This document shows, piece after piece, positions 5,351-60,829 of a stretch of DNA of 64,000 nucleotides (its first letter is position 1; every line of letters starts with the position of its first letter). The stretch is taken from assembly GCF_050320075.1 (NCBI RefSeq), contig NZ_CP190018.1; one strand, given 5' to 3'. The notes under the pieces are model-generated. The model searched no databases, was not told where the DNA came from, and was given only the letters and a program-made list of their open reading frames with translations. Source of the stretch: Escherichia coli (GTDB lineage: Bacteria; Pseudomonadota; Gammaproteobacteria; Enterobacterales; Enterobacteriaceae). The position numbers were made by a program, and so were the translations under genes.

Positions 5351-5584
5351 TATAAGCGTCAGGCAATGCCGTGGACTCGCTTCACGGCATTCGCATTAAC
5401 GCTATCGACAACGATAAAGTCAGGTTGAAGTTGTGTATATCGGCTAAACTTAGGTTTAACAGAATGTAATGCCATGACTGCTTACATGTAATGTGTTTGT
5501 CATTGCTTACTTTTTGGCGTTATATGATGGATAATGCCGGGATACAGAGAGACCCGACTCTTTTAATCTTTCAAGGAGCAAAGA

Positions 5585-5770
5585 ATGCTGATTCTGACTC
5601 GTCGAGTTGGTGAGACCCTCATGATTGGGGATGAGGTCACCGTGACAGTTTTAGGGGTAAAGGGCAACCAGGTACGTATTGGCGTAAATGCCCCGAAGGA
5701 AGTTTCTGTTCACCGTGAAGAGATCTACCAGCGTATCCAGGCTGAAAAATCCCAGCAGTCCAGTTACTAA
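5585..5770 (+). CDS. csrA: Carbon storage regulator CsrA
   Basis: 61-aa [51 protein letters not shown].. Confidence 0.98.
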
Positions 5771-5777
5771 TCTTTCC

Positions 5778-5803
5778 GCGTCTCATCTTTATCGGTGAGA
5801 CGC
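5778..5803 (+). terminator. Hairpin downstream of csrA (possible terminator)
   Basis: Inverted repeat GCGTCTCA..TGAGACGC just after the csrA stop; no clear U-run, so weak. Confidence 0.3.
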
Positions 5804-6086
5804 ACCCCTCAAAATATCTCCTTCACTCCATTGTCTTTTCGCTTTACTCCCGTTCATTCAACTTAAGTCTCCATTTTTTTGCATTACTGCTATCTGACAG
5901 ACCTCCGTTTTTCTGTTGATAAAACACTCTTTTTGACGTTTTTACAGACTAATTGAGCGTGAAGTGTGCAAACGATAAAAGTGTGGGAAAAATTGTTTGA
6001 CTTATAAGTCTCAGAAAGTAATATGTGCGCCACGCAGCGACGATGAGCGATAAACAAGTTCTTCGAAGCACTCGTAAGAGGCGTGT

Positions 6087-6179
6087 GGTGAGGTGGCCGA
6101 GAGGCTGAAGGCGCTCCCCTGCTAAGGGAGTATGCGGTCAAAAGCTGCATCCGGGGTTCGAATCCCCGCCTCACCGCCA
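6087..6179 (+). tRNA. serV: tRNA-Ser (anticodon GCU)
   Basis: 93-nt sequence GGTGAGGTGGCCGAG..CGCCTCACCGCCA with long variable arm, anticodon loop CUGCUAA, 3' CCA. Confidence 0.95.
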
Positions 6180-6182
6180 TTT

Positions 6183-6259
6183 GCATCCGTAGCTCAGCTG
6201 GATAGAGTACTCGGCTACGAACCGAGCGGTCGGAGGTTCGAATCCTCCCGGATGCACCA
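6183..6259 (+). tRNA. argV: tRNA-Arg (anticodon ACG), copy 1
   Basis: 77-nt GCATCCGTAGCTCAGCTGGATAGAGTACTCGGCTACGAACCGAG..GGATGCACCA. Confidence 0.95.
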
Positions 6260-6370
6260 TATTCTACGTACTTTCAGCGATGAAGGTATGGAAGAGGTGG
6301 CGGTAATAACCGCAGGCACCAGGGAGGATAACGTTGCTTTAGCAACGGCCCGAAGGGCGAGCCGCAAGGC

Positions 6371-6393
6371 GAGTAATCCTCCCGGATGCACCA
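6371..6393 (+). pseudogene. tRNA 3'-end fragment (T-arm/acceptor remnant) inside the tRNA-Arg array spacer
   Basis: GAGTAATCCTCCCGGATGCACCA mimics the last ~20 nt of the adjacent tRNA-Arg and is followed by a normal inter-tRNA spacer. Confidence 0.5.
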
Positions 6394-6457
6394 TCTCTTA
6401 CTTGATACGGCTTTAGTAGCGGTATCAAAAAATCTGCAGTAAAGTAAGTTTCCCGAT

Positions 6458-6534
6458 GCATCCGTAGCTCAGCTGGATAGAGTACTCGGCTACGAACCGA
6501 GCGGTCGGAGGTTCGAATCCTCCCGGATGCACCA
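6458..6534 (+). tRNA. argY: tRNA-Arg (ACG), copy 2
   Basis: Identical 77-nt tRNA-Arg sequence. Confidence 0.95.
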
Positions 6535-6596
6535 TCTCTTACTTGATATGGCTTTAGCAGCGGTATCAATATCAGCAGTAAAATAAATTTCCCGAT

Positions 6597-6673
6597 GCAT
6601 CCGTAGCTCAGCTGGATAGAGTACTCGGCTACGAACCGAGCGGTCGGAGGTTCGAATCCTCCCGGATGCACCA
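6597..6673 (+). tRNA. argZ: tRNA-Arg (ACG), copy 3
   Basis: Identical 77-nt tRNA-Arg sequence. Confidence 0.95.
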
Positions 6674-6775
6674 TATTCTCCGTAATCATCAGTGATGATG
6701 GTTAAGATGGATTTTCTTATTTGATATGGCTTTAGTAGCGGTATCAATATCAGCAGTAAAATAAGTTTTCCCGAT

Positions 6776-6852
6776 GCATCCGTAGCTCAGCTGGATAGAG
6801 TACTCGGCTACGAACCGAGCGGTCGGAGGTTCGAATCCTCCCGGATGCACCA
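6776..6852 (+). tRNA. argQ: tRNA-Arg (ACG), copy 4
   Basis: Identical 77-nt tRNA-Arg sequence. Confidence 0.95.
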
Positions 6853-6999
6853 TCTTCTCCAAAAAATTTCCTTCAAAAATATCTCATTTCTAAATAACTA
6901 CTTTATCCATTTCCTGAATTTTCTTCTCCTTCGCCATCAGCGACAAAATCAAGCAATTACGCTAAAGTAGCGTCATATTTTTCGACTTGCGAGAAGACC

Positions 7000-7566
7000 A
7001 TGTACGAGCGTTATGCAGGTTTAATTTTTGATATGGATGGCACCATCCTGGATACCGAGCCTACGCACCGTAAAGCGTGGCGCGAAGTATTAGGGCACTA
7101 CGGTCTTCAGTACGATGTTCAGGCGATGATTGCGCTTAATGGCTCGCCCACCTGGCGTATTGCTCAGGCGATTATTGAGCTGAATCAGGCCGATCTCGAC
7201 CCGCATGCGTTAGCGCGTGAAAAAACAGAAGCAGTAAGAAGTATGCTGCTGGATAGTGTCGAGCCGCTTCCTCTTGTTGAAGTGGTGAAAAGCTGGCATG
7301 GTCGTCGCCCAATGGCTGTAGGAACGGGGAGTGAAAGCGCCATCGCTGAGGCATTGCTGGCGCACCTGGGATTACGCCGTTATTTTGACGCCGTCGTCGC
7401 TGCTGATCACGTCAAACACCATAAACCCGCGCCAGACACATTTTTGTTGTGCGCGCAGCGTATGGGCGTGCAACCGACACAGTGTGTGGTCTTTGAAGAT
7501 GCCGATTTCGGTATTCAGGCGGCCCGTGCAGCAGGCATGGACGCTGTGGATGTTCGCTTGCTGTGA
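7000..7566 (+). CDS. yqaB: HAD-family sugar phosphatase (fructose-1-phosphate phosphatase)
   Basis: 188-aa ORF with HAD motif FDMDGTILDTE; synteny. Confidence 0.9.
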   Translation: MYERYAGLIFDMDGTILDTEPTHRKAWREVLGHYGLQYDVQAMIALNGSPTWRIAQAIIELNQADLDPHALAREKTEAVRSMLLDSVEPLPLVEVVKSWHGRRPMAVGTGSESAIAEALLAHLGLRRYFDAVVAADHVKHHKPAPDTFLLCAQRMGVQPTQCVVFEDADFGIQAARAAGMDAVDVRLL

Positions 7567-7991
7567 GTGAAGCGTTATCGCTTTTCTCGTTGTTTGCCAG
7601 TAGTTTTCTCAGCGCTACACTATTACCCGGCAACTCCGAAGTCGTGCTGGTGGCAATGTTGCTTTCCGGGATCAGTCATCCCTGGGTTTTAGTTTTAACA
7701 GCAACAATGGGTAATAGCCTTGGAGGGTTAACTAACGTTATCCTTGGGCGTTTCTTTCCATTGCGTAAAACATCGCGCTGGCAAGAGAAAGCTACCGGCT
7801 GGCTGAAACGCTATGGTGCAGTCACGCTATTATTAAGCTGGATGCCCGTGGTTGGCGATTTACTGTGTCTGTTAGCGGGATGGATGCGCATCTCCTGGGG
7901 GCCGGTAATCTTTTTTTTGTGCCTTGGTAAAGCGTTACGCTATGTTGCAGTTGCAGCAGCGACCGTTCAGGGCATGATGTGGTGGCACTAA
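7563..7991 (+). CDS. yqaA: DedA/SNARE-associated family inner membrane protein
   Basis: 142-aa hydrophobic ORF overlapping the yqaB stop by 4 nt. Confidence 0.85.
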   Translation: MSEALSLFSLFASSFLSATLLPGNSEVVLVAMLLSGISHPWVLVLTATMGNSLGGLTNVILGRFFPLRKTSRWQEKATGWLKRYGAVTLLLSWMPVVGDLLCLLAGWMRISWGPVIFFLCLGKALRYVAVAAATVQGMMWWH

Positions 7992-8036
7992 TTGTAGGCC
8001 TGCACATATGGTCACCATTACAGTTATGCTAATTAA

Positions 8037-9620
<1,584 letters not shown>

Positions 9621-49090: not shown

Positions 49091-51424
49091 TCAGGCTGTT
49101 GCAGGGTCGTCACATTTTGGCAGCCAGTCGCCGTAGCTTTCCTCTTTCAGCGTCAGGTTGGTCTGTATCCCCTGTTTGGTATGGCGCTTCTCGTAATTCA
49201 GTCCGTATTCCTTCAGCATCACCGGCAGCCCCAGCCCGAACATTTTCAGACTGAGTACGTTCCGGTAGCCGTTTGCCTCCATGTAGGCCAGATAGGCGTG
49301 ATAGAGGTATTTACGGTAATTGCGCGGGATGATGCTGGCGTTCCCCATATACATGCCGCTGGTCTGCGGCAGGGTTTCCAGATAGCCGATAAAATCAAAC
49401 GTCGGGTCGGCATCCCGTTTGATGTTCAGCGCCTCGTCTGAGTTCTGCTGGGACTGAAGCAGTGACCGGGCGAGCATCGGGTCGCTGAACTTCTGCATCA
49501 GGTGACGCACGATGACCGCCAGCTCGCGGGTGATTTTGTCCTTAAGCTGCGGGTCGCGCTCCTGCGGGGCTATCTGTTCCGGGAAGTGAATAATCACCCG
49601 CCGGCGTGACACGCCGCCGCTGCGGTCGGTGAAGCGCATCGGGTTATTGTTCACGGCCAGAATTACCGCCGGGATATGCGTGGAGTATGCATCCCGGTAT
49701 TTCGGGTCAACGGACACCGCATCGCCGCCGGTGATGGCCTTGAGTCCGGCACCGTCGCCGCTCCATTTTTCCTGGTCCGGCAGGCGTATCAGTGAGAAGC
49801 CAGTTAACGCGGCACGTTCACGCGGGGATTCCAGCGTCTCGATGGTGGCCGACGTGGCGTTATCCTCACCGGCCAGCAGGGTGGCTATTTCGGCCATGAT
49901 ACTTTTGCCGCTGCCGCCGGGACCGGTCACCTCCAGAAAGAGCTGCCAGTCGTAGCGGTTTGCCAGCACCATAAACAGTGCGGCCAGAATCACGTCGCGT
50001 TTTTCCGCACGACCACCGGCGGCACGGTCAAGCCAGCGCCAGAACGCGGGGGCGTGGGTTTCCAGCGTTTCCCCTTCCACCGGCGGGGTGAAATCCACAT
50101 CGCACAGGGTGCGCATCCAGTGTGACGGACTGTGCGGGTGGAACGTGCCGCTCTGCGTGTCGAGCACGCCGTTACGAAAGCCAATCAGGCGGCGGGAGGG
50201 GGCTTCCTGCTGCGGAATAATCAGCTTCAGGGTGTCCACCACGGAGGCCACCTTCCCGGAGGAGAACGGCGCGCGCAGACGCTGAAACAGCCCGGCCACA
50301 TCCCGGGCAAAGTCCTGTGGTGGCAGCACCTTCCAGACACCATTTTCATAACGGGACAGAAGCTGGCCGTTGGCATCAACCGCGAGCGCCTCGCCGTAAT
50401 GCTCATAGATACGCATGGCCTTTTCGCTGGTACTCATGGCGGAAAACTCCGCTTCGCTCATGGTGTCGAACGGGCTTTCAGCCGGTGGCCGGATGGCATC
50501 ATAAATGGCCTTACGGGTGGCTTCCCCGCCGTACTGCGTGAAGGCATCATTCCAGTCACCGAAGACCGGCGGCAGGGCAACAACACCTTCACACGCATCT
50601 GCGGCTGCGGCGGCTTTTTTCTGGCCGTCACCGCTGAGGTCACGGTCAGCAGCAAGGACAATCTGACAGGCCGGATGCTTCTGCCGGGCAAGGCTGGCCA
50701 GAGAAAGGAGATTCACGGAAGAAAGCGCCACCATCACCGTTTCACCGGTCAGGTGATGCACGGTAAGTGCGGTCGCGTATCCCTCCGCTATCCACAGACG
50801 TTTTCCGGCCTGATTCTGTCCTTCAAGGGTGTGACAGGTGCCCCTGACCTGTCCGCCTTTCAGGGTGCGCTTACGGCCGTCAGCACTGATTAACTGAAGG
50901 TTAACCAGTTCGCCGCTGTCGTCATACAGTGGCACCACAAGGTCACCGGCGCGCCAGCTCACGCCACCGGCTCTGTGTGTGCCGGTCAGCATCCGGCATT
51001 CCCGGCCGGGAAAGCCCTTGCGGGTCAGGTAGGCGTTACCGGTTCCGGGACGGGTTTTCGCCATCAGGGTTTGTGCCAGTGCGGCGGCGTTCTTCCGGGC
51101 AGCGTCTGTTTCAGCACCGGCGGCGGTCGTCACTGCCGGGTCAGCCGGGGGCAGGCTGCCGGTCACGGCAGCCACCTTTGCGGCCGCGTCGGACGGGGAA
51201 ACACCAAACACCTTTTCAACCAGTTTCAGGCCGTCACCGGCACCACACTGATTGCAGTACCAGGTGCCGCGCCCCTCCCTGTCATCAAAACGGAAGCGGT
51301 CACTCCCGCCACAGACCGGACAGGGCTGATGACGGTTCTTCAGCACCTGAATCCCCAGCGCCGGGAGAATACGCGGCCAGTGGCCGAGCGCATGGCTGAC
51401 GGTGGCGGTTACGTTCATTTTCAT
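49091..51424 (-). CDS. P4 alpha-like primase/helicase (replication protein)
   Basis: 777-aa ORF; N-terminal zinc motif CPVCGG..YCNQCG, toprim-like region, central Walker A GPGGSGKS; strong SD AAGGAG upstream. Confidence 0.9.
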   Translation of the reverse strand: MKMNVTATVSHALGHWPRILPALGIQVLKNRHQPCPVCGGSDRFRFDDREGRGTWYCNQCGAGDGLKLVEKVFGVSPSDAAAKVAAVTGSLPPADPAVTTAAGAETDAARKNAAALAQTLMAKTRPGTGNAYLTRKGFPGRECRMLTGTHRAGGVSWRAGDLVVPLYDDSGELVNLQLISADGRKRTLKGGQVRGTCHTLEGQNQAGKRLWIAEGYATALTVHHLTGETVMVALSSVNLLSLASLARQKHPACQIVLAADRDLSGDGQKKAAAAADACEGVVALPPVFGDWNDAFTQYGGEATRKAIYDAIRPPAESPFDTMSEAEFSAMSTSEKAMRIYEHYGEALAVDANGQLLSRYENGVWKVLPPQDFARDVAGLFQRLRAPFSSGKVASVVDTLKLIIPQQEAPSRRLIGFRNGVLDTQSGTFHPHSPSHWMRTLCDVDFTPPVEGETLETHAPAFWRWLDRAAGGRAEKRDVILAALFMVLANRYDWQLFLEVTGPGGSGKSIMAEIATLLAGEDNATSATIETLESPRERAALTGFSLIRLPDQEKWSGDGAGLKAITGGDAVSVDPKYRDAYSTHIPAVILAVNNNPMRFTDRSGGVSRRRVIIHFPEQIAPQERDPQLKDKITRELAVIVRHLMQKFSDPMLARSLLQSQQNSDEALNIKRDADPTFDFIGYLETLPQTSGMYMGNASIIPRNYRKYLYHAYLAYMEANGYRNVLSLKMFGLGLPVMLKEYGLNYEKRHTKQGIQTNLTLKEESYGDWLPKCDDPATA

Positions 51425-51438
51425 GGTGTTGTTCTCCT

Positions 51439-51759
51439 TCAGTGCAGTACCGGCGCTTTTATGTGACGGGCACAGAGTTCATCCATCACAACCAGCCCGA
51501 GAAAGGACAGCGACGGCGCGGCCTTCAGGGGGCCGGATTCCATTAAATCTTCCAGCAGGGCACAGGCTATCTGACGCCCTTTTTCCTCACCGTGCTGGCG
51601 CAGATAAAAGCCTTCCAGCTCAGCGGCGATGGCCGCCTCCAGTGATTCAAGGGTGAGATGCGGGTAGCGGTGCTGACGTTCGCACACGGTCAGCCAGGCA
51701 CAGGCGACAGCGCGACGGTAAAGGGCAGCGCGTAAGACGGGCGGTAAGGGTGTTTTCAT
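51439..51759 (-). CDS. 106-aa protein upstream of alpha (P4 orf106/Cnr-like by position and size)
   Basis: ORF with GGAGG SD 7 nt upstream; ends 14 bp before the alpha start; functional name is from recalled P4 gene order only. Confidence 0.6.
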
Positions 51760-51894
51760 TTGCTTTCCTCCCTGTGACAGATGACTGCATTCCGTGCCGG
51801 TTGCATTAACTGATAAGGCATATCTGCGTCTCCTGAAGACGTGCGTATCCCTGCGCGAATACGCACATTTAATTTTTCGGGTGTCGTTTTTTAA

Positions 51895-52350
51895 TTACAG
51901 ATAATTGCGGTAACTGTTATCCGGGGTGATTTCCGGGTCAGACTCCGTGCGGGGAATTTCCCGCCATTCCCGCGCCACCGGTGCCGCCCGGCTGACCGGA
52001 ACAGGGGCCTGCGGGTAAATATCCAGATATTTCTCCCGCCATTTCTGTAATTCCGGGTCTCCGGCCATTTCTTTCAGTACCGCATGCCGGTTTACGGGGC
52101 TGCGTTTAAACAGGTCAGGACGGTCACAGGTAAATTCCCGCAGAAAACGCCCCAGCGGGATGTCTGTGGTGCGTCCGTCAGCGAGGATACGCACAAGGAT
52201 ACTGAATTTACGGCGGTACGGGTTCCAGACAATGTCCGGGCAGCGGTACGGCATTTCCCACGGAATACCGTCTTCCAGAATGCCGACCACGGCCACATCG
52301 GGAAAACCGGCAGAACGGTAAATCTCACCGGGCTGGGGAAAATCAAACAT
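51895..52350 (-). CDS. 151-aa hypothetical protein (P4 orf151-like)
   Basis: Start ATG overlaps the stop of the upstream gene (ATGTTTGA); same operon. Confidence 0.6.
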   Translation of the reverse strand: MFDFPQPGEIYRSAGFPDVAVVGILEDGIPWEMPYRCPDIVWNPYRRKFSILVRILADGRTTDIPLGRFLREFTCDRPDLFKRSPVNRHAVLKEMAGDPELQKWREKYLDIYPQAPVPVSRAAPVAREWREIPRTESDPEITPDNSYRNYL

Positions 52351-52630
52351 GCGTCCTGTCTCCCCGGTCTTTCTGCTGGGCGAGAAAATCGCGGCACAGG
52401 CCTTTGGCTTTCAGCTCATTCAGCACAAAATCAATATCTTCATTCAGGTAGCTGAAAATATGCGGAATGTAGAGCTGATGCAGGCCGGAGAGTTCACGGT
52501 GAATCAAATCACCCCCAACAAACTGGGATACGGCGCTGGCGCGGTTGAGCTTATGGTAAGCCTCAATGCTGAGGTGTTCACGGGCGTCATGACGCGCTGA
52601 GACGGTCTGAGGGGCTTTTTTATTACGCAC
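52343..52630 (-). CDS. 95-aa hypothetical protein, GTG start (possibly P4 epsilon-like)
   Basis: Track ORF 52343..52915 has an implausible N-terminus overlapping the upstream gene; GTG at 52630 is preceded by GGAGG at 6-nt spacing, giving [28 protein letters not shown].. Confidence 0.5.
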
Positions 52631-53222
52631 GGGACACCTCCACCACCGGCAGACGGGCAGCAAGGGAGAGCACATAGTCACGGACAAGGGAACGGCGGGC
52701 ACTGCGTTCATCACCGGCGACGGTGCGAAGCATACAGATACGGGGATGACGGTCTGCGCGACGGACAGCCGCAAACACAAAGACAAATTCAGGGTGTGAG
52801 GGGGTAAGGGTTGTAGCCATGATGGCAGCCTCCTGTGAATAGCAAATAACGCTATCGCCGGAGTTCTCACGCTCGATGGCGATAGCCCAGACGGGGGTGA
52901 GAATACCGGCTTCACAGGATACCGGCCAGCCCGGAGGCTGCCCCGCCTGAGCTACCATTGACTCTGCGGCATAATGAGCGGACGCGGGCAGGATGCACGG
53001 AATGCCATCTGCACGACTGACCACACACCACACCATAATCTGGCGCTCTGTGGCATTGATTGCGACACAAAAAAAGACGCGTGGCGCGTCATATGTCGCC
53101 TGTGAATTGCTCGGGTTCTCACGCCCGGCTGCCGATTTTGCGGCAGCGGAAAAACTATATCCGCAAATGCCGGAAAAAGGCAAGCCAGAAAAAGGGACTT
53201 TTTGCAGAGCGGGCATCATCAT
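52623..53222 (-). CDS. 199-aa hypothetical protein (P4 orf199-like)
   Basis: ATGATGATG at 53222-53214 overlaps the vis stop (ATGA coupling); track ORF 52623..53267 extends into vis in another frame. Confidence 0.5.
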
Positions 53223-53485
53223 GCGTCGTACCCCCGTTTGCGTCCGGCAATGCGCCCGGCCATCCATGCGGTGACTTCAGAGTGCAGCCAGGCCACATTT
53301 TTACCGCCAAGACTCACCTGCGGCGGAAATTCCCCTTTACGGATGAGTTCATAGATGGTCGAGCGTGACAGGCCGCACAGGTGCATCACTTCCGGCAGAC
53401 GTAAAAAACGCTCCTGCGTGATGTCCGGCAGCGGCATCAGTGGCGTCACAGGGGCGGGAGACGGGGAAGAAAAAACAGCTTGCAT
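53219..53485 (-). CDS. AlpA/Vis-family phage regulator (excisionase-like HTH), 88 aa
   Basis: ..[44 protein letters not shown].. AlpA-type HTH; first gene of the leftward operon. Confidence 0.8.
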
Positions 53486-53587
53486 CGGGCTACCTCGTTA
53501 ATGTCCATACAGCACCGGATAAGTCCGTCCGGCTTCGGGTAGCGCTTTATTTTGTGAATATTTTCAGCAGACGCAACAGGGGGGATT

Positions 53588-53605
53588 TGTTCCGGCAGTC
53601 TTACA
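53588..53605 (-). promoter_or_regulatory. TGT-N12-ACA dyad (Ogr/Delta activator-type box) upstream of the vis-alpha operon
   Basis: TGTTCCGGCAGTCTTACA about 100 bp upstream of the vis start; dyad geometry as in P2/P4 late promoters. Confidence 0.45.
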
Positions 53606-53764
53606 ATGGCTGTGTATTTTTTGTTCATCTCCACTTAAAGTCATTTAAAGCCACTTAAAGCAATTCGTAATTTTTATAGTGAAATACAAATCGTTTTTTC
53701 TTATTCATTCCCGGCGAATTAATAAAAACAAACAGTAATAAACAGCACAAAAAGCCCATCAACG

Positions 53765-53869
53765 GGTGAACAGTGGTGAACAGACGGTGAACAGTCATTA
53801 CTGCGATTGTTCACCCTTTAACTTACTGTATTACTTATCTTTTTTATTAAGGTGAACAGAGGTGAACAG
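53765..53869. repeat. Iteron cluster (GGTGAACAG x5 direct, 1 inverted), ori-like
   Basis: GGTGAACAG at 53765, 53775, 53786, 53851, 53861; inverted TGTTCACC at 53808-53815; same 8-mer as the cluster at 48948-49040. Confidence 0.8.
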
Positions 53870-53948
53870 TAAAATATAAAAAAAACAAACAGTAAGCCGG
53901 TTTTTCCTGCGACCTTTTCCTGGCTTGCCGGTCTGAGGATGAGTCTCC

Positions 53949-53966
53949 TGTGTCAGGGCTGGCACA
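53949..53966 (+). promoter_or_regulatory. TGT-N12-ACA dyad (Delta/Ogr box) of the sid promoter
   Basis: TGTGTCAGGGCTGGCACA centred ~80 bp upstream of the sid ATG. Confidence 0.45.
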
Positions 53967-54038
53967 TCTGCAATGCGTCGTGTTGTTGTCCGGTGTACGT
54001 CACAATTTTCTTAACCTGAAGTGACGAGGAGCCGGAAA

Positions 54039-54773
54039 ATGTCTGACAACACCATCCCTGAATATCTGCAACCCGCGCTGGCACAACTGGAAAAGGCCAG
54101 AGCCGCCCATCTTGAGAACGCCCGCCTGATGGATGAGACCGTCACGGCCATTGAACGGGCAGAACAGGAAAAAAATGCGCTGGCGCAGGCCGACGGAAAC
54201 GACGCTGACGACTGGCGCACGGCCTTTCGTGCAGCCGGTGGTGTCCTGAGCGACGAGCTGAAACAGCGCCACATTGAGCGCGTGGCACGCCGGGAGCTGG
54301 TACAGGAATATGACAATCTGGCCGTGGTGCTGAATTTTGAACGTGAACGCCTGAAAGGGGCGTGTGACAGCACGGCCACCGCCTACCGGAAGGCACATCA
54401 TCACCTGCTGAGTCTGTATGCAGAGCATGAGCTGGAACACGCCCTGAATGAAACCTGTGAGGCGCTTGTCCGGGCAATGCATCTGAGCATCCAGGTACAG
54501 GAAAATCCGCTCGCCAACACCACCGGCCATCAGGGCTACGTCGCGCCGGAAAAGGCTGTCATGCAGCAGGTGAAATCATCGCTGGAGCAGAAAATTAAAC
54601 AGATGCAAATCAGCCTCACCGGCGAGCCGGTTCTCCGGCTGACCGGACTGTCAGCGGCAACACTCCCGCACATGGATTATGAGGTGGCAGGCACACCGGC
54701 ACAGCGCAAGGTGTGGCAGGACAAAATAGACCAGCAGGGAGCAGAGCTTAAGGCCAGAGGACTGCTGTCATGA
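54039..54773 (+). CDS. sid: P4 Sid-like capsid size-determination (external scaffold) protein, 244 aa
   Basis: Start MSDNTIPEYLQPALAQLEK.. inside track ORF 54021..54773; coiled-coil-rich; stop overlaps the delta start (ATGA). Confidence 0.8.
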   Translation: MSDNTIPEYLQPALAQLEKARAAHLENARLMDETVTAIERAEQEKNALAQADGNDADDWRTAFRAAGGVLSDELKQRHIERVARRELVQEYDNLAVVLNFERERLKGACDSTATAYRKAHHHLLSLYAEHELEHALNETCEALVRAMHLSIQVQENPLANTTGHQGYVAPEKAVMQQVKSSLEQKIKQMQISLTGEPVLRLTGLSAATLPHMDYEVAGTPAQRKVWQDKIDQQGAELKARGLLS

Positions 54774-55270
54774 TTTACTGCCCGTCGTGTGGACATGTTG
54801 CTCACACCCGTCGCGCACATTTCATGGACGATGGCACCAAGATAATGATTGCACAGTGCCGGAATATTTATTGCTCTGCGACATTTGAAGCGAGTGAAAG
54901 CTTTTTCTCTGACAGTAAAGATTCAGGAATGGAATACATTTCAGGCAAACAGAGATACCGCGATTCACTGACGTCGGCCTCCGGCAGTATGAAACGCCCG
55001 AAAAGAATGCTTGTTACCGGATATTGTTGTCGGAGATGTAAAGGCCTTGCGCTGTCAAGAACATCGCGGCGTCTGTCTCAGGAAGTCACCGAGCGTTTTT
55101 ATGTGTGCACGGATCCGGGCTGTGGTCTGGTGTTTAAAACGCTTCAGACCATCACCCGCTTCATTGTCCGCCCGGTCACGCCGGACGAACTGGCAGAAAA
55201 CCTGCATGAAAAACAGGAACTGCCGCCAGTACGGTTAAAAACACAATCATATTCGCTGCGTCTGGAATGA
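54770..55270 (+). CDS. P4 Delta-like late-gene activator (tandem Ogr-type zinc fingers), 166 aa
   Basis: Two Cys4 motifs (CPSCGH..CRNIYC and CCRRCKG..CTDPGCG). Confidence 0.85.
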   Translation: MIYCPSCGHVAHTRRAHFMDDGTKIMIAQCRNIYCSATFEASESFFSDSKDSGMEYISGKQRYRDSLTSASGSMKRPKRMLVTGYCCRRCKGLALSRTSRRLSQEVTERFYVCTDPGCGLVFKTLQTITRFIVRPVTPDELAENLHEKQELPPVRLKTQSYSLRLE

Positions 55271-55343
55271 GGGCTGCCGGTTAACACCGGCCGTCGCCAC
55301 ACACCGTATTTTTATTCTTCAGCATGATGAGAAAGAGATAACG

Positions 55344-55916
55344 ATGGAAAGCACAGCCTTACAGCAGGCCTTTGACACCTGTCAGAATAACAAAGCAGCA
55401 TGGCTGCAACGCAAAAATGAGCTGACTGCGGCCGAACAGGAATATCTGCGGCTTCTGTCAGGAGAAGGCAGAAACGTCAGTCACCTGGACGAATTACGCA
55501 ATATTATCGAAGTCAGAAAATGGCAGGTGAATCAGGCCGCCGGTCGTTATATTCGTTCGCATGAAGCCGTTCAGCACATCAGCATCCGCGACCGGCTGAA
55601 TGATTTTATGCAGCAGCACGGCACAGTACTGGCGGCCGCACTGGCACCGGAGCTGATGGGCTACAGTGAGCTGACGGCCATTGCCCGAAACTGTGCCATA
55701 CAGCGTGCCACAGATGCCCTGCGTGAAGCCCTTCTGTCCTGGCTTGCGAAGGGTGAAAAAATTAATTATTCCGTACAGGATAGCGACATTTTAACGACCA
55801 TCGGATTCAGGCCTGACGCGGCTTCGGTGGATGACAGCCGTGAAAAATTCACCCCTGCGCAGAACATGATTTTTTCGCGCAAAAGTGCGCAACTGGCATC
55901 ACATCAGTCTGTGTAA
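55344..55916 (+). CDS. psu: P4 Psu-like polarity suppression / capsid decoration protein, 190 aa
   Basis: 190-aa ORF following sid and delta; lengths 244/166/190 match my recollection of P4. Confidence 0.8.
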   Translation: MESTALQQAFDTCQNNKAAWLQRKNELTAAEQEYLRLLSGEGRNVSHLDELRNIIEVRKWQVNQAAGRYIRSHEAVQHISIRDRLNDFMQQHGTVLAAALAPELMGYSELTAIARNCAIQRATDALREALLSWLAKGEKINYSVQDSDILTTIGFRPDAASVDDSREKFTPAQNMIFSRKSAQLASHQSV

Positions 55917-55950
55917 AACTCCCCGAAAATCCGCCCGTTTTTACTGAAAA

Positions 55951-55983
55951 AAGCCATGCATCGATAAGGTGCATGGCTTTGCA
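55951..55983 (+). terminator. Intrinsic terminator after psu
   Basis: Hairpin GCCATGCATCGATAAGGTGCATGGC followed by TTT. Confidence 0.6.
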
Positions 55984-56080
55984 TGCGTTTTCCTGCCTCA
56001 TTTTCTGCAAACCGTGCCATTCCCGGCGCGGTCTGAGCGTGTCAGTACAACTGCATTAAAACCGCCCCGCAAAGCGGGCG

Positions 56081-56099
56081 GGCGAGGCGGGGAAAGCAC
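56081..56099. other. cos site (P2/P4-type 19-nt cohesive end sequence)
   Basis: GGCGAGGCGGGGAAAGCAC inside a GC-rich palindromic context (AAACCGCCCCGCAAAGCGGGCGGGCGAGGCGGGG..); matches the P2/P4 cohesive end as I recall it. Confidence 0.7.
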
Positions 56100-56303
56100 C
56101 GCGCGCTAAACCTGATGAATAAGGAATATTTTAAAAACATTTGTGGATATGAATATTTGGGTTGTAAATGAGTGTTTTTATCTGTTTTTATGTGCTGTGA
56201 AGCAATGTTTGAGTCGATATTTTTATAAAGCTCAATAAAAATTACATTATCATTGATAAGAATGGTTGTCGGATTAACACGTTTTTAAGCTATTTATATA
56301 TAA

Positions 56304-56349: not shown

Positions 56350-59076
56350 TTAGTTGATTAGGTGTGACTCAGTTGCAGAGTGACCTTTTTTTGTCCTAAC
56401 AAACTTGATAGCAAGTGTTTTTCCTCTAATGTAATTAGACCAGTTATATTTTTCTTCACCAAGGCAACTGTCCCTATGAATTAATATTTCTTTTCCATCA
56501 GAATCTCTGGCAAAAACAAATCCTTTTCCTAATGTAAGATCTGAATATATTTCTGCTATAGAATATCCATTATTTTTCCATGTGATTTGTTCGAATTCGG
56601 CAATTGTTTTAGATGAGCTAAAAGCACTCCATTTGGGGGAGGTGAATGGGTTGTTTGGTATTTTTGTTGCTCTCATTGTTGAAATGATATTAACTACTTC
56701 TTTACTTGATATCTTAAAATCTTTAGAGAACTTTGTAATGTCGGCAAGATTGCTTTCAGCAAAATCAATTACTTTTATAATGAATTGTTGAGATAGTTTA
56801 TCAATGTTGTTTTTGATCGTGTCACAAAAAAGATTTAAAGATTTAATAGCTTCGTCAGAAAGTCGATCGCTGATGTTTTCTTTTTCAAATATAAATTCCA
56901 ATATGTCGATAACTTCAGATATGTTTTTTTCTACAGACTCAGGGTTAATGTCGAAGTTATTTTCACAAGAACGCTTTAATGCGGCGACTCTAAAGTAAGC
57001 TTGCTCTTGAGGTGAATGTGAATCTTTCCATTTTTCAGTGTATTCAAGAATGTCTGGGTATTCTTTACCATAAAGATGAACACCTAAATACTCTCGCATT
57101 ATTATAGAAGACAGTACTTCGCCTGAATGCTCAACTCTGTCGAATCCAGAATCAATCAATTCCTGAGATACTTTTTGAGCCTCTATAAAATCACCAATAT
57201 CTTTATAGATATACATCAGAGTTAAGTTGTTTAGTGGATTTTCAGACTCTATGCCTATTGCTGACTTTATACAAGAAATAGCACCTAAATTATCACCCTG
57301 CTTATGTAGTATTCTGGCATATGTTCGCATAAATAGAGGATTTTTTTGATATATTTGAGCGAGTGTTTTAAAATCCTCATAAATAACATTTAATTTATCT
57401 TTGTTAACGCTTTTGTAGCCTAAAATTTTATTTGCTCTGTTAACAGCTATTTGCAAGGAGTCAGGGCTATTATTAGGGATGAATCGATAATCAAACCGAT
57501 CTATTTCTTTATCTTGTTGGAATTTTTGTAAGTGCAATATTTCAGTTCGTTGTTTTCTTGCTTTTTCAGCAATAATGTTTCTGACGGTGTTATTTCTTGG
57601 TGATGTGATTAATAGTTCTTTGATTGATTCACTTAAAGAAAACTCTTCTTCTCCCGTATTAGATGTTTTCCGGGATACTAAAGATGTGTTCAATATTTCT
57701 TTAATCGCTTTTGCTATTGAGTCGGGATCTGAATCTAAGAAATGAGTTAAAAATGATCTTGATGATGCTCCGGTGACAAACAAGCATTCAAGAATAGATA
57801 TTGCATCGTTACTTAAAACATCTAATAGATTATTAAATGAAAATGCAGCGATATCTTTTTTGGATTTTTCTATTGAGTCAGGTAAAGCCATTCCATTATA
57901 AATGGAATCTATTGTAAGCCTTATTGCTAAGGGGTTAAAATGAGTCACTTCAGTAATTCTCGTGAGTTCTTCTGGGGTTAAGTTTATTATCCCTCGTTTA
58001 TCTGAATATGATTTGGCTAGATGGAAAGCCACACCAGATTGCAATTCCTTAAGTGAAATTGGGTAAGCTCCGTCAACCATTATTCGACTAGTGACTACCA
58101 CTTTAAAATTCGAAGGAAGAGTATACTGGAAACGAATGAACTCATCAGGACCATCTCTTAATAAAGTTTCGAGATTATCGATACATAGGAGAGTGCTTTC
58201 TATATCTTGGTCGTTTATAATTTCTGAATATAGATCATCATAGTTTTCTATCTCTTCATCAGGATTAAAAAACTCCACTATTTCTTTTTTTATTTCAGAA
58301 ATGGTGTCAATGTTTTTTAACTCAGAAATACCATCAGCAGTGAGATGATGTTTCTTTAATGTTAAATAGCAAATGTTTTTGAATTTCTCATTGGCTTTTG
58401 GTGAGATGCTCAATTCTTTTAAGAAATCTAAAATTAAAGCGGTTTTTCCTACGCCTCCAGGAGCTACAACCGCAATGAATGGAGTTCGATCGTTATTTAT
58501 TGCTGATAATAACTCTTTCTTTTCACCTTTACGGCCTATAAGGCTGGTAATGTCGTGATCAAATTTATCAGGCAGGTTGTTATTAATTTCCCAGCTAATA
58601 GTAGAAAACCATTCTTCTGGAGGTGCTTTTAATTGACCAGTAGATGCGGAATAATAAGCATCCTTCACACTTTTTAAACCAAGTACTTCTATATATGGAT
58701 GTGAGGCTATAGCTGCAGCGCAATGCCAGTAATGCTCATGGAATGGTCGGGTTGGATGACTAATTTGATTTCTTATAAAAAATAAATCAACAGCTGTACA
58801 GAACTCTTTCAGTTCTGACAGTTTATCATAGTCAGATGTACCCTTAGCTAATTGCAGGGCATAATTGAAAATTTCACCGATATAACTTGCTTGGATAAGA
58901 GTTTGCGTATTGAAAACGGGACCTCTCCCACGCTCCAGTTCTAGTTTAGAACGAGGTTCGAAATGTTCGCTTAACCTACTTTTACCTCCTGCATCCTCAC
59001 TAACAACATACGCCGCCAATGCTTTTTCTAAGGCATAAACTATCATACTAGTTTTCGTATCAAGATATTCAGACAT
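56350..59076 (-). CDS. STAND (NB-ARC-type) NTPase with N-terminal effector-like domain, helical repeat region and C-terminal beta domain; candidate antiphage defence protein
   Basis: 908-aa AT-rich ORF with SD AAGGA; LIGRKGEKKEL..IAVVAPGGVGKTALIL (Walker A), LLCIDNLE (Walker B), KVVVTSR (RNBS-B-like), HFNPLAIRL (GLPL-like); N-terminal IRNQISH (Rx4H); C-terminal GKGFVFARDSDGKEILIH. Confidence 0.8.
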   Translation of the reverse strand: MSEYLDTKTSMIVYALEKALAAYVVSEDAGGKSRLSEHFEPRSKLELERGRGPVFNTQTLIQASYIGEIFNYALQLAKGTSDYDKLSELKEFCTAVDLFFIRNQISHPTRPFHEHYWHCAAAIASHPYIEVLGLKSVKDAYYSASTGQLKAPPEEWFSTISWEINNNLPDKFDHDITSLIGRKGEKKELLSAINNDRTPFIAVVAPGGVGKTALILDFLKELSISPKANEKFKNICYLTLKKHHLTADGISELKNIDTISEIKKEIVEFFNPDEEIENYDDLYSEIINDQDIESTLLCIDNLETLLRDGPDEFIRFQYTLPSNFKVVVTSRIMVDGAYPISLKELQSGVAFHLAKSYSDKRGIINLTPEELTRITEVTHFNPLAIRLTIDSIYNGMALPDSIEKSKKDIAAFSFNNLLDVLSNDAISILECLFVTGASSRSFLTHFLDSDPDSIAKAIKEILNTSLVSRKTSNTGEEEFSLSESIKELLITSPRNNTVRNIIAEKARKQRTEILHLQKFQQDKEIDRFDYRFIPNNSPDSLQIAVNRANKILGYKSVNKDKLNVIYEDFKTLAQIYQKNPLFMRTYARILHKQGDNLGAISCIKSAIGIESENPLNNLTLMYIYKDIGDFIEAQKVSQELIDSGFDRVEHSGEVLSSIIMREYLGVHLYGKEYPDILEYTEKWKDSHSPQEQAYFRVAALKRSCENNFDINPESVEKNISEVIDILEFIFEKENISDRLSDEAIKSLNLFCDTIKNNIDKLSQQFIIKVIDFAESNLADITKFSKDFKISSKEVVNIISTMRATKIPNNPFTSPKWSAFSSSKTIAEFEQITWKNNGYSIAEIYSDLTLGKGFVFARDSDGKEILIHRDSCLGEEKYNWSNYIRGKTLAIKFVRTKKGHSATESHLIN

Positions 59077-59094: not shown

Positions 59095-60282
59095 TTAAAG
59101 AGTGGTTTGCAATCCCCACCAATTCATTAACTCTATACGTTGTTCTAAATAGGTACTTCTATTGTAAGCTTTTCGAACCTCATTCCTCTCGGAATGCGCC
59201 AATGCTGCTTCAATAACATCAGGATTAAATTCTGCTTCGTTCATTGCCGTACTGGCAATTGATCTTAGTCCATGGGCCACTAACTTACCGCCATAACCTA
59301 TTCTCTTCAAGGCAGCGTTTGCCGTCTGACTGTTCATCGGCTGTTTTGGATCGTTTCTGCTCGGGAAAATATGTTCACGGTGACCACTGATAGGCTTCAT
59401 TACTTCCAAAATACCTAAAGCCTGAGGTGACAAAGGGACAATGTGTTCACGTTTAGCCTTCATTCGTTCGGCGGGAATCGTCCAGAGTTTGGCCTCGAGA
59501 TCGATCTCGACCCACCGAGCACCAGAAGCCTCAGAAGGGCGCACTAGGGTCAGGAGCTGCCACTCGATAAGACAGCGAGTCGGAACAGACAGATTCGACA
59601 TTACCAGAGAACGCATCAGCTTAGGTAATTCTTCGGGTCGTAGCGTGGGCATATTCTGCTTTTTGGGTTTCTCAAATGCCATTCCAACACCTGATGCTGG
59701 ATTTGCATCAATTAGACCAGTGTTTACGGCATAAATCATTATCTCGTTAATGCGCTGTACCAGACGACGTACCGTCTCTAGCGCGCCACGTGCTTTGATT
59801 GGTTCGAGGGTTTCAACAAGTGTTCGGGCTTTGATTTGCTGAACAGGGAGCTCACCGATGGCAGGTAATACATCTTTTTCCAGGGAACGCCAAATGTCTT
59901 TCGCGTAATCAGGGGTAACGCTTTTGCTTTTTATCTGGAACCAGTTGGTCGCAACAGTCGAAAAAATACTGTCTAGAGCTATCTGTTGTTGTTCTTCGAT
60001 AAATTCAGCTTGAACTTGTGGGTCTATACCATTAGCCAACAAAGCAAGGTAATCCGCTCTTAACCGTCGAGCATCAGCAAGTGAAAGGGCGGGGAAAGCA
60101 CCAAGCCCCATCATTGTCCGCTGTTTTGTTGCTGGACGTTGATAACGGAAACGCCACAACTTCTTACCGTTCGTTTTAACGAGCAGAAAAAGGCCATCGC
60201 CATCATGTAACGTTAGATCCTTTTCTAACGCTTTAGCGCGCAGAACTTCGGTGTTGGTCAGGGGGCGTGTTGTTCTTGCCAC
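59095..60282 (-). CDS. P4-family tyrosine integrase
   Basis: 395-aa ORF, GTG start with AAGGAG SD; N-terminal arm-binding-like LTNTEVLRAKALEKDLTLHDGDGLFLLVKTNGKKLWRFRY; C-terminal HGLRS..R..Y catalytic region; adjacent to the ssrA 3' end. Confidence 0.9.
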   Translation of the reverse strand: MARTTRPLTNTEVLRAKALEKDLTLHDGDGLFLLVKTNGKKLWRFRYQRPATKQRTMMGLGAFPALSLADARRLRADYLALLANGIDPQVQAEFIEEQQQIALDSIFSTVATNWFQIKSKSVTPDYAKDIWRSLEKDVLPAIGELPVQQIKARTLVETLEPIKARGALETVRRLVQRINEIMIYAVNTGLIDANPASGVGMAFEKPKKQNMPTLRPEELPKLMRSLVMSNLSVPTRCLIEWQLLTLVRPSEASGARWVEIDLEAKLWTIPAERMKAKREHIVPLSPQALGILEVMKPISGHREHIFPSRNDPKQPMNSQTANAALKRIGYGGKLVAHGLRSIASTAMNEAEFNPDVIEAALAHSERNEVRKAYNRSTYLEQRIELMNWWGLQTTL

Positions 60283-60466: not shown

Positions 60467-60829
60467 TGGTGGAGCTGGCGGGAGTTGAACCCGCGTCCGA
60501 AATTCCTACGTCCTCGGTACTACATGCTTAGTCAGTCTTTACATTCGCTTGCCAGCTGCGGACGGACACGCCACTAACAAACTAGCCTGATTAAGTTTTA
60601 ACGCTTCAACCCCAGGCAGGGCTTCCACGCGATCTCTTTTGGGTTTGACCTCTCTTGATCCCCGTCCTAAGAGCGGAGGCTAGGGAGAGAGGGCTCTAAG
60701 CAGGTTATTAAGCTGCTAAAGCGTAGTTTTCGTCGTTTGCGACTATTTTTTGCGGCTTTTTACGAGGCCAACCGCCCCTCGGCATGCACCTTGGGTTTCG
60801 CAAATCCCGTCGAATCCAGAATCAGCCCC
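60467..60829 (-). ncRNA. ssrA: tmRNA (SsrA), 363 nt
   Basis: Minus strand reads GGGGCTGATTCTGGATTCGACGGGATTTGCGAAACCC..; tag ORF GCAAACGACGAAAACTACGCTTTAGCAGCTTAA (ANDENYALAA*); 3' end ..GCCAGCTCCACCA. Confidence 0.97.

Follow-up and report, generated by a model that had tools for sequence, protein, structure and literature searches.

The left operon of the satellite phage P4 (X51522 / NC_001609, nt 4636–9030) comprises alpha, orf106/cnr, orf151, epsilon, a region listed as 'cI ORF137' or eta-kil, and orf88/vis. For P4, release of the CI-type RNA by processing (RNase P) and premature termination are both known (PMC4825925, PMC10111431). In the published model, summarised in PMC10111431, translation of eta prevents termination; the same source groups eta with the Bro-network genes. 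Acting on alpha, Cnr negatively regulates plasmid copy number, and seven core components define the P4-like satellites (de Sousa & Rocha, PMC8628076). Outside P4, the IsrK RNA of Salmonella Gifsy-1 is a structural homologue of P4 seqA RNA and has a CI-like processed RNA downstream (PMC4825925).

The window analysed here, 64,000 nt of Escherichia coli DNA, contains an operon of this type on its minus strand. Nucleotide alignment of the window identifies 48922–56112 as phage P4 sequence (98.5% identity over 7.16 kb); identity is 99.0% across the operon (51300–54100) and 100% within 52631–53146. The gene set consists of vis (orf88), eta (orf199) with kil nested in frame, epsilon (orf95), orf151 and cnr (orf106), with alpha downstream. 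The ORF coordinates coincide with the P4 GenBank CDSs, and the RefSeq/PGAP CDS calls in E. coli YZLc1-3 fall on the same ORFs, including a 600-nt (199-aa) CDS. Protein identities to P4 range from 147/151 residues for orf151 to 106/106 for cnr. We therefore regard it as highly probable that a P4-type satellite prophage has its left operon here, with genes for early/late regulation and for replication, and that this operon works as established for P4. It is a textbook locus whose CDSs are already in RefSeq, and as a discovery it matters little. The initial annotation had tentatively matched the ORFs to the P4 genes eta, epsilon and cnr, and comparison with P4 bears this out (197/199 residues identical to the same P4 frame for eta, 94/95 for epsilon and 106/106 for cnr). 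It had also called the middle ORFs unannotatable by motif; profile tools in fact give Pfam families for four of the five ORFs.

The operon belongs to an 11.7-kb P4-like satellite at ssrA, located between ypjA and ssrA and flanked by the two copies (48764 and 60467; the ssrA 3′ end) of a 15-bp att direct repeat. The element carries the marks of its class: alpha domains (PF03288 and related), alpA/vis (PF05930), PF10554, sid, delta and psu in P4 order, and an integrase with att. PF10554, the 'epsilon' profile of the satellite scheme, matches the eta ORF and not epsilon, which belongs to PF25738. The cos and sid–delta–psu regions align to P4, and the three products are collinear with P4 and identical at 242/244, 162/166 and 184/190 residues. 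The 395-aa tyrosine integrase has arm-binding, central and catalytic domains, and neither it nor its site is that of P4. Because ypjA–ssrA is also the locus of the cryptic prophage CP4-57 in K-12, and because the element has one crr repeat only and differs from P4 in integrase and cargo, it could be read as a decayed, non-functional P4 remnant with a fossil operon. We judge this very unlikely, since each of the ten P4 core ORFs is complete and free of internal stops, and the att-bounded unit is of normal P4 size. The completeness of the three-domain integrase, the alignment of cos and sid–delta–psu, and the presence of near-identical whole elements in several unrelated E. coli strains likewise speak against decay.

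Successive start/stop overlaps had been reported for the operon, and all three are present in the minus-strand sequence. At vis/eta, the motif ATGA (53222–53219) overlaps the vis TGA with the eta ATG. At eta/epsilon, GTGCGTAA (52630–52623) places the epsilon GTG 5 nt ahead of the eta TAA, and at epsilon/orf151, ATGTTTGA (52350–52343) overlaps the orf151 ATG with the epsilon TGA. The vis/eta junction ATGATGATG is retained in most of 63 unique relatives, and these gene overlaps are conserved rather than chance features. The description 'tightly coupled' suits vis/eta, eta/epsilon and epsilon/orf151 but not orf151/cnr, where the genes lie 135 nt apart; the cnr–alpha gap is 14 nt. Good Shine-Dalgarno sites precede vis (GAGGT), kil (AGGAGG, 8 nt ahead of the ATG), epsilon (GGAGGT), cnr (GGAGG) and alpha (AGGAG), whereas those of eta (GGGGGT) and orf151 are weak.

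Two longer frames run across these junctions. ORF 52623–53267 (214 aa) is the eta frame extended back to an ATG within vis at 53267, and ORF 52343–52915 (190 aa) is the epsilon frame extended back to a GTG at 52915. Although the mechanical ORF list contains none longer, it is scarcely credible that they are the true products. Neither start is preceded by a Shine-Dalgarno site; among 41 relatives, epsilon begins with GTG in 38 and with ATG, at exactly the same position, in the other 3, and some relatives have an in-frame stop just 4 codons upstream of it. The first two of these points, absent ribosome-binding sites and the pattern of epsilon starts, led us to reject both frames. In addition, the 95-position Pfam model of epsilon is matched by residues 1–95, and the conserved eta start ATGATGATG is coupled to the vis stop. 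The initial annotation was right to treat the two frames as artefacts, and they are over-extensions of epsilon and eta.

The first gene, vis (P4 orf88; 53219–53485, minus strand), encodes an 88-aa protein with 87 residues identical to P4. It matches Pfam Phage_AlpA (PF05930, E=7e-21) and carries the PHROG label 'excisionase and transcriptional regulator', consistent with a predicted role as an AlpA-family excisionase and late-promoter regulator. A pattern scan finds a TGT-N12-ACA dyad upstream of vis at 53588–53605, which, judging from what is known of P2/P4 late promoters, would be the site at which Delta/Ogr activates the late-left promoter PLL.

The protein genes downstream also follow P4 closely. 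The in-frame C-terminus of eta constitutes kil (52623–52820, minus strand), whose 65 residues are all identical to those of P4; it matches NCBIfam NF033153 (E=1.6e-21) and would be an Icd-like cell-division inhibitor. Next is epsilon (P4 orf95; 52343–52630, minus strand), the predicted anti-repressor that derepresses helper prophage P2, with a full-length match to Pfam Derepression (PF25738, E=7.7e-51, residues 1–95 against model positions 1–95). The product of orf151 (51895–52350, minus strand) has no match in Pfam or NCBIfam, and its PHROG (10748) is of unknown function. It has 104 homologues, of which the named ones are all from Enterobacterales and are labelled 'hypothetical' or 'Prophage protein', and its AF2 model is a small β-barrel with helices. 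We regard orf151 as a genuine gene encoding a conserved protein. The cnr product (P4 orf106; 51439–51759, minus strand) matches Pfam DUF5375 over its entire length (PF17345, E=2.9e-63, residues 1–106 against model positions 1–106). PDB sequence searches with epsilon, orf151 and cnr gave nothing meaningful. The last gene of the operon is alpha (49091–51424, minus strand; 771/777 residues identical to P4), a predicted primase-helicase and origin-binding replication protein with the Pfam domains Zn_Ribbon_Prim, Toprim_3, D5_N and Pox_D5.

The spacer between orf151 and cnr (51760–51894, minus strand) is 135 nt of untranslated sequence containing a 12-bp hairpin at about 51836–51870 (fold z=-1.9). 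A dyad is annotated at the matching place in X02534, and the spacer has no Rfam family match.

Several further signals lie within eta. A promoter scan predicts a constitutive sigma-70 promoter, PLE (TTGCCT-18-TATAGT; 53183–53154, minus strand), which is the only sigma-70-like site in 51300–54100. It lies just upstream of position 53147, the first base of an isrK model match, and X02534 has a -10 annotated here. The PLE leader RNA (53070–53147, minus strand) matches the isrK model (RF01394) end to end at 69.7 bits and the c4-a1b1 model at 49.5 bits. At its end, the terminator scan detects an intrinsic terminator made up of a GC hairpin stem and a T-run (53090–53076, minus strand), which we take to be t1; the name reportedly comes from Briani et al. 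in 2000. The initial annotation had suspected a P4-type cI immunity RNA, and one is present as a match to the Rfam C4 family (RF01695) at 52875–52962 on the minus strand, with a score of 74.9 bits (gathering score, 45). The gene is 100% identical to P4, as is the stretch around it, and its RNA folds at -34.6 kcal/mol (z=-2.7). From P4 coordinates 8501–8433 and an offset of 44455, the mature 69-nt CI RNA would presumably occupy 52956–52888.

Both expected targets of this RNA can be recognised. One loop of CI, CCUGUGAA, has an exactly complementary site, UUCACAGG, on both the upstream and the downstream side. The upstream (seqA-side) copy lies at 53106–53099 on the minus strand and is left unpaired by the leader fold. 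The downstream (seqC-side) target, UUCACAGGAGGCUGCC (52824–52839, minus strand), lies over the kil Shine-Dalgarno sequence and contains exact 9- and 10-nt complements to CI positions 38–46 and 15–24. Because RNAduplex runs of full-length CI against the transcript were dominated by self-complementarity, we relied instead on exact complements and covariation. Across 63 related elements, the CI loop and its upstream and downstream sites covary three-way in at least ten alleles, an example of another loop/target allele being CCGAUAAC/GUUAUCGG; these alleles probably define heteroimmunity groups among P4-family elements. In Rfam searches, the C4 and isrK pair is found within the eta homologue in all 20 sampled relatives. 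The RF01695 match above gathering score and the two loop-complementary targets, of which the second covers the ribosome-binding site of the Icd-like kil, place the locus in the C4/CI antisense-RNA immunity class (Rfam clan CL00128). The operon is therefore not one simple unit, as PLE, the isrK-type leader with t1, the CI/C4 RNA and the nested kil are all within eta. The initial description as a single operon misses the internal promoter, terminator and RNA gene, the kil gene nested in 'orf199' and the 135-nt spacer before cnr.

These signals bear on the status of eta (P4 orf199; 52623–53222, minus strand), which is coupled to vis and begins with three consecutive ATGs, giving a product of 197–199 aa. 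None of the 63 unique relatives has lost this open frame, although they differ by in-frame indels of 9–57 nt. The other two frames across eta contain 4–6 stops, and when the same substitutions are placed at random, the eta frame survives open in only 3.5–28% of trials. Upstream of kil, eta has a pN/pS of 0.66–1.10 with flat codon positions, whereas the control genes at the same loci give 0.29 (kil), 0.33 (vis), 0.41 (epsilon), 0.33 (orf151) and 0.31 (cnr), with a third-position excess, all values being computed pairwise over relatives' sequences and ignoring phylogenetic non-independence. In the leader and CI segments, values near 1 are suggestive only, because overlapping RNA/DNA constraints depress synonymous change. 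The argument rests mainly on two fast-evolving eta spacers, where pS is 0.42 and pN 0.32–0.34. Thus eta is kept open, yet its amino-acid sequence upstream of kil seems unconstrained, a pattern that fits the published model in which eta is translated to prevent termination.

A different reading is that the locus is a simple polycistronic unit with five conventional protein genes, that full-length Eta acts as a regulatory protein in its own right (Ash/'Bro-network' type), and that the embedded RNA signals are secondary. Its basis is the 199-aa PGAP CDS, the conserved open frame, the match of eta residues 22–146 to Pfam Phage_ASH (PF10554, E=6e-24), the PHROG 6928 label 'transcriptional repressor' and the Bro-network filing (PMC10111431). 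We consider it unlikely, given the promoter, terminator and RNA gene inside eta and the lack of amino-acid constraint or codon periodicity upstream of kil. Furthermore, over residues 80–146 the Pfam and PHROG matches fall on the DNA encoding CI and seqC, and RNA-level conservation can explain them. Labelling eta as 'Phage_ASH' or 'repressor', and treating PF10554 as a marker for 'epsilon', rests on an ORF conserved largely at the RNA/DNA level. Automatic annotation, for its part, omits the CI/C4 RNA, the isrK-type leader, PLE and the nested kil.

Our own results consist of the P4 identity, the RNA family matches, the motifs of promoter and terminator, the complementary sites with their covariation, and the selection pattern; for the termination mechanism, RNA processing and protein functions we infer from the P4 literature how the locus would operate. 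Two nested transcription units, driven by PLE and PLL, would occupy the same DNA. In the lysogen, PLE would fire constitutively and processing of its transcript would yield the stable CI RNA, whose hairpin-2 loop may pair with the leader site on the seqA side and with the kil ribosome-binding site on the seqC side. Such pairing is expected to increase termination at t1, block kil translation and expose the RNA to downstream termination, so that kil, epsilon, orf151, cnr and alpha would be off, which constitutes immunity. Upon infection or induction, the activator-dependent PLL, upstream of vis, would give a longer transcript from which vis is translated, with ribosomes entering eta through the ATGA coupling. 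Translation of eta over the CI/seqC/kil region would prevent termination and thereby allow read-through into epsilon (anti-repressor of helper P2), orf151, cnr (copy-number control) and alpha (primase-helicase).

Among known systems, the closest is the P4 left operon itself, with which the locus shares gene content, order and overlaps at 99% nucleotide identity. About 20 substitutions distinguish the two operons, including, near PLE, a CG/GC swap at 53147–53148 and a single change at 53198. The CI RNA, seqC and kil are 100% identical, and P4 immunity specificity is therefore expected for the present element. Elsewhere, the 395-aa integrase with its ssrA site and cargo encoding a 908-aa NTPase replace P4 int, cII, beta and gop; with this NTPase gene in its psu–int hotspot, the satellite may carry a defence gene that is as yet uncharacterised. 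The element has one 120-bp crr repeat where P4 has two, so replication competence is not guaranteed. The immI region of phages P1/P7 (C4 antisense RNA, icd and ant; RF01695/RF03163) is similar in that the operon is repressed by a same-family RNA processed from it, the targets of this RNA lie upstream and over the ribosome-binding site of an Icd-like gene, and loop sequences set specificity. P1 differs in that its downstream payload is the antirepressor Ant, and it lacks the vis-eta read-through arrangement and satellite replication genes. The Salmonella Gifsy-1 IsrK / STnc1160 / orf45-anrP system (RF01394) is related through the isrK model, which fits the PLE leader here. In Gifsy-1, however, the short RNA acts in trans, activating translation of an anti-terminator-related gene, whereas the leader described here would serve as a cis target of CI.

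The feature is the already-known left operon of phage P4, with its CI-RNA immunity circuit. To this our analysis makes modest additions: comparative support for a GTG start, a series of covarying loop/target pairs and a reading of eta upstream of kil as translated spacer. Six successive ORFs occupy 49091..53485 on the minus strand: vis (53219..53485, 88 aa), eta (52623..53222, 199 aa from the first of three consecutive ATGs), epsilon (52343..52630, 95 aa from a GTG), orf151 (51895..52350, 151 aa), cnr (51439..51759, 106 aa) and alpha (49091..51424, 777 aa). In a BLAST comparison with phage records, 51300..54100 matches Enterobacteria phage P4 (X51522, NC_001609) at 99.0% identity and 100% query coverage; within the operon, a P4 coordinate plus 44455 gives the window coordinate. 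CDS boundaries in the P4 records are identical for alpha, ORF106 (cnr), ORF151, epsilon and ORF88 (vis), and the older ‘cI gene product (AA 1-137)’ and ‘put. ash gene’ entries share the frame of orf199 (eta). RefSeq/PGAP calls the same five CDSs in E. coli YZLc1-3, where the 199-aa product is named ‘host cell division inhibitor Icd-like protein’.

The initial annotation had assigned the middle ORFs to P4 regulatory genes (eta, epsilon and cnr-like) by length and position, and protein alignment supports that interpretation, with 197/199, 94/95 and 106/106 residues identical, respectively. The remaining products are similarly close (vis 87/88, orf151 147/151, alpha 771/777), as is Kil (65/65), a 65-residue in-frame C-terminus of Eta with its ATG at 52820 and AGGAGG 8 nt upstream. 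Profile searches place vis in Phage_AlpA, the whole of epsilon in PF25738 ‘Derepression’, cnr in DUF5375 and the last 65 residues of eta in NF033153 (Icd-like); for orf151 they return no family except one PHROG of unknown function.

All three junction motifs described earlier were read in the sequence: ATGA at 53222..53219, GTGCGTAA at 52630..52623 and ATGTTTGA at 52350..52343. The two large ORFs dismissed as artefacts are the eta and epsilon frames extended to start codons further upstream, and the original gene model is therefore right. Tight coupling holds for these overlaps but not throughout, as 135 untranslated nt separate orf151 from cnr and 14 nt separate cnr from alpha; likewise, the good Shine–Dalgarno sequences proposed for every start do not extend to eta and orf151, where the ribosome-binding sites are weak. 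The orf151–cnr spacer (51760..51894, minus strand) has a 12-bp hairpin at about 51836..51870, together with another, weaker stem (fold z=-1.9), and an Rfam scan of the spacer gave no match.

The epsilon GTG lies 5 nt downstream of GGAGGT, and the 95-aa sequence contains no internal methionine. Of 41 relatives, 38 have GTG at the aligned start and 3 have ATG, and in some (L008, L055) the frame is closed four codons upstream. The conserved start and closed upstream frame support the 95-aa product, and the extended 190-aa frame was rejected. An epsilon-like ORF next to eta is missing from 21/62 relatives; orf151 is missing along with it and is found in 41, so epsilon–orf151 behaves as a replaceable module in the family. 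There are 104 homologues of orf151; their sources, where named, are Enterobacterales (Escherichia, Salmonella, Klebsiella, Citrobacter, Edwardsiella, Serratia, Yersinia and others), and the names given are ‘hypothetical protein’ or ‘Prophage protein’. Purifying selection on orf151 (pN/pS 0.33) indicates a real gene.

Three Rfam RNA families match within the eta ORF, all on the minus strand: C4 antisense RNA (RF01695, 52875..52962, 74.9 bits, gathering score 45), isrK (RF01394, 53070..53147, 69.7 bits) and c4-a1b1 (RF03163, 53108..53160, 49.5 bits). The suspected P4-type cI immunity RNA is thus present: its C4 match lies within 52631..53146, a stretch 100% identical to P4 that includes most of kil as well as the CI RNA and its downstream target. 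A single sigma-70-like promoter occurs in 51300..54100, TTGCCT-18-TATAGT at 53183..53154 (minus strand), directly upstream of where the isrK match begins. This promoter is P4 PLE, and the isrK match is the PLE leader (seqA region). On the minus strand, a GC hairpin with a T-run at 53090..53076, which forms the 3′ end of the isrK match, is the P4 terminator t1. We take the mature P4 CI RNA to be nt 8501-8433, or 52956..52888 in the window; this 69-mer adopts the C4 fold (-34.6 kcal/mol, z=-2.7). Upstream of kil, eta differs from the P4 record only by a CG/GC swap at 53147..53148, the predicted PLE +1 (residue 26, P to A), and by C/G at 53198 (residue 9, L to V). One possible source of the swap is an old sequencing compression in X51522.

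In CI, the loop of hairpin 2 (UCCUGUGAA) is the exact complement of UUCACAGG at 53106..53099, a site that the predicted fold of the leader leaves unpaired. The same loop is complementary to UUCACAGGA (52839..52831), and the adjacent GGAGGCUGCC (52833..52824), which holds the kil Shine–Dalgarno sequence, is complementary to CI positions 15-24. We collected 79 related loci from IMG/VR with the eta protein (63 unique sequences); C4 and isrK matches lay inside the eta homologue in 20/20 sampled loci. The loop occurs as at least 10 alleles among the 63 sequences, and nearly all elements carry the exact complement of their own loop at the upstream site and at the downstream one (e.g. loop/target CCGUUAGA/UCUAACGG, CCGAUAAC/GUUAUCGG, CCUUGAAG/CUUCAAGG and CCAUUGAG/CUCAAUGG). 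Such three-way covariation argues strongly, on comparative grounds, for CI pairing with both targets, and suggests alleles that probably define heteroimmunity groups in the P4 family. The allele in the window is that of P4.

The same 63 ORFs separate constraint on the eta frame from constraint on its peptide. Pairwise Nei–Gojobori estimates, which ignore shared ancestry, give pN/pS of 0.76 for residues 1-13, 0.66 for 14-25 (PLE), 1.10 for 26-51 (leader), 0.81 for 52-87 (spacer), 0.93 for 88-116 (CI) and 0.75 for 117-134, with overlapping RNA constraints lowering pS for the leader and for CI, compared with 0.29 for kil (135-199). Controls from the same loci are 0.33 (vis), 0.41 (epsilon), 0.33 (orf151) and 0.31 (cnr). 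Differences are equal at all three codon positions upstream of kil and show the usual third-position excess within it. Frame 0 is nevertheless open in 63/63 sequences, against averages of 4.0 and 6.1 stops in the other two frames, and from the conserved ATGATGATG start to kil, length differences of 9, 45, 48 and 57 nt all preserve the frame. Random re-placement of the observed substitutions leaves the frame open in just 3.5-28% of trials per lineage. The simplest reading of these sequence comparisons is that eta upstream of kil is selected for being translated through, not for its peptide.

This pattern matches the published model as summarised in PMC10111431. There, interactions involving CI and seqA terminate the transcript from the eta-internal promoter early, and processing of this transcript yields CI; read-through allows translation of Kil; only the upstream late promoter gives full-length Eta, whose translation is coupled to that of the alpA homologue; and ‘Eta translation prevents termination’. 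PMC4825925 describes CI, seqA and seqC in like manner. A translated spacer also explains the Pfam ‘Phage_ASH’ and PHROG ‘repressor’ labels attached to RNA-encoding DNA. Pfam ‘Phage_ASH’ (PF10554), which served as an ‘epsilon’ marker in PMC8628076, covers residues 22-146 of eta and not epsilon; PHROGs 995/821/3960 (‘transcriptional regulator’) cover only residues 80-146, or 52785..52985, the DNA encoding CI RNA and seqC. These protein families may largely mirror RNA-level conservation.

The operon lies in an 11.7-kb P4-like satellite between ypjA and ssrA, a site held by CP4-57 in K-12. The boundaries of the element are formed by a 15-bp direct repeat, TGGTGGAGCTGGCGG, at 48764..48778 and 60467..60481, the second copy being the 3′ end of ssrA (tmRNA, 60467..60829). 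Arm-like repeats CGTATACC(T/A)A occur near both ends (48840, 48852, 60333, 60345). The divergent Psid late operon (54039..55916, plus strand) encodes sid, delta and psu (242/244, 162/166 and 184/190 residues identical to P4), with a pattern-based TGT-N12-ACA activator site at 53949..53966; P4 sid begins at 54039 and has 244 aa, whereas the ORF lister takes it back to GTG 54021 (250 aa). In the psu–integrase hotspot, a 908-aa ORF (56350..59076, minus strand) has weak STAND/AAA_16-like character, all its matches (AAA_16, nSTAND1 and PADLOC PDC-S27) falling below threshold, and is named ‘P-loop NTPase family protein’ or ‘ATP-binding protein’ by PGAP. It is a candidate STAND-type anti-phage gene, not yet characterised. 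P4-like DNA is present in 2861/5426 complete E. coli genomes, with at least 80% of this whole element in just 7.

Across the element, 48922..56112 aligns with P4 4469..11624 and then across cos with P4 1..31, at 98.5% identity. P4 crr has two 120-bp direct repeats, whereas the element has one copy (48922..49045), to which alone the first P4 repeat aligns (86.7%). Beyond psu and cos, P4 carries gop-beta-cII-int, whereas this element carries the 908-aa NTPase ORF and a 395-aa tyrosine integrase (59095..60282, minus strand) that is not P4 Int.
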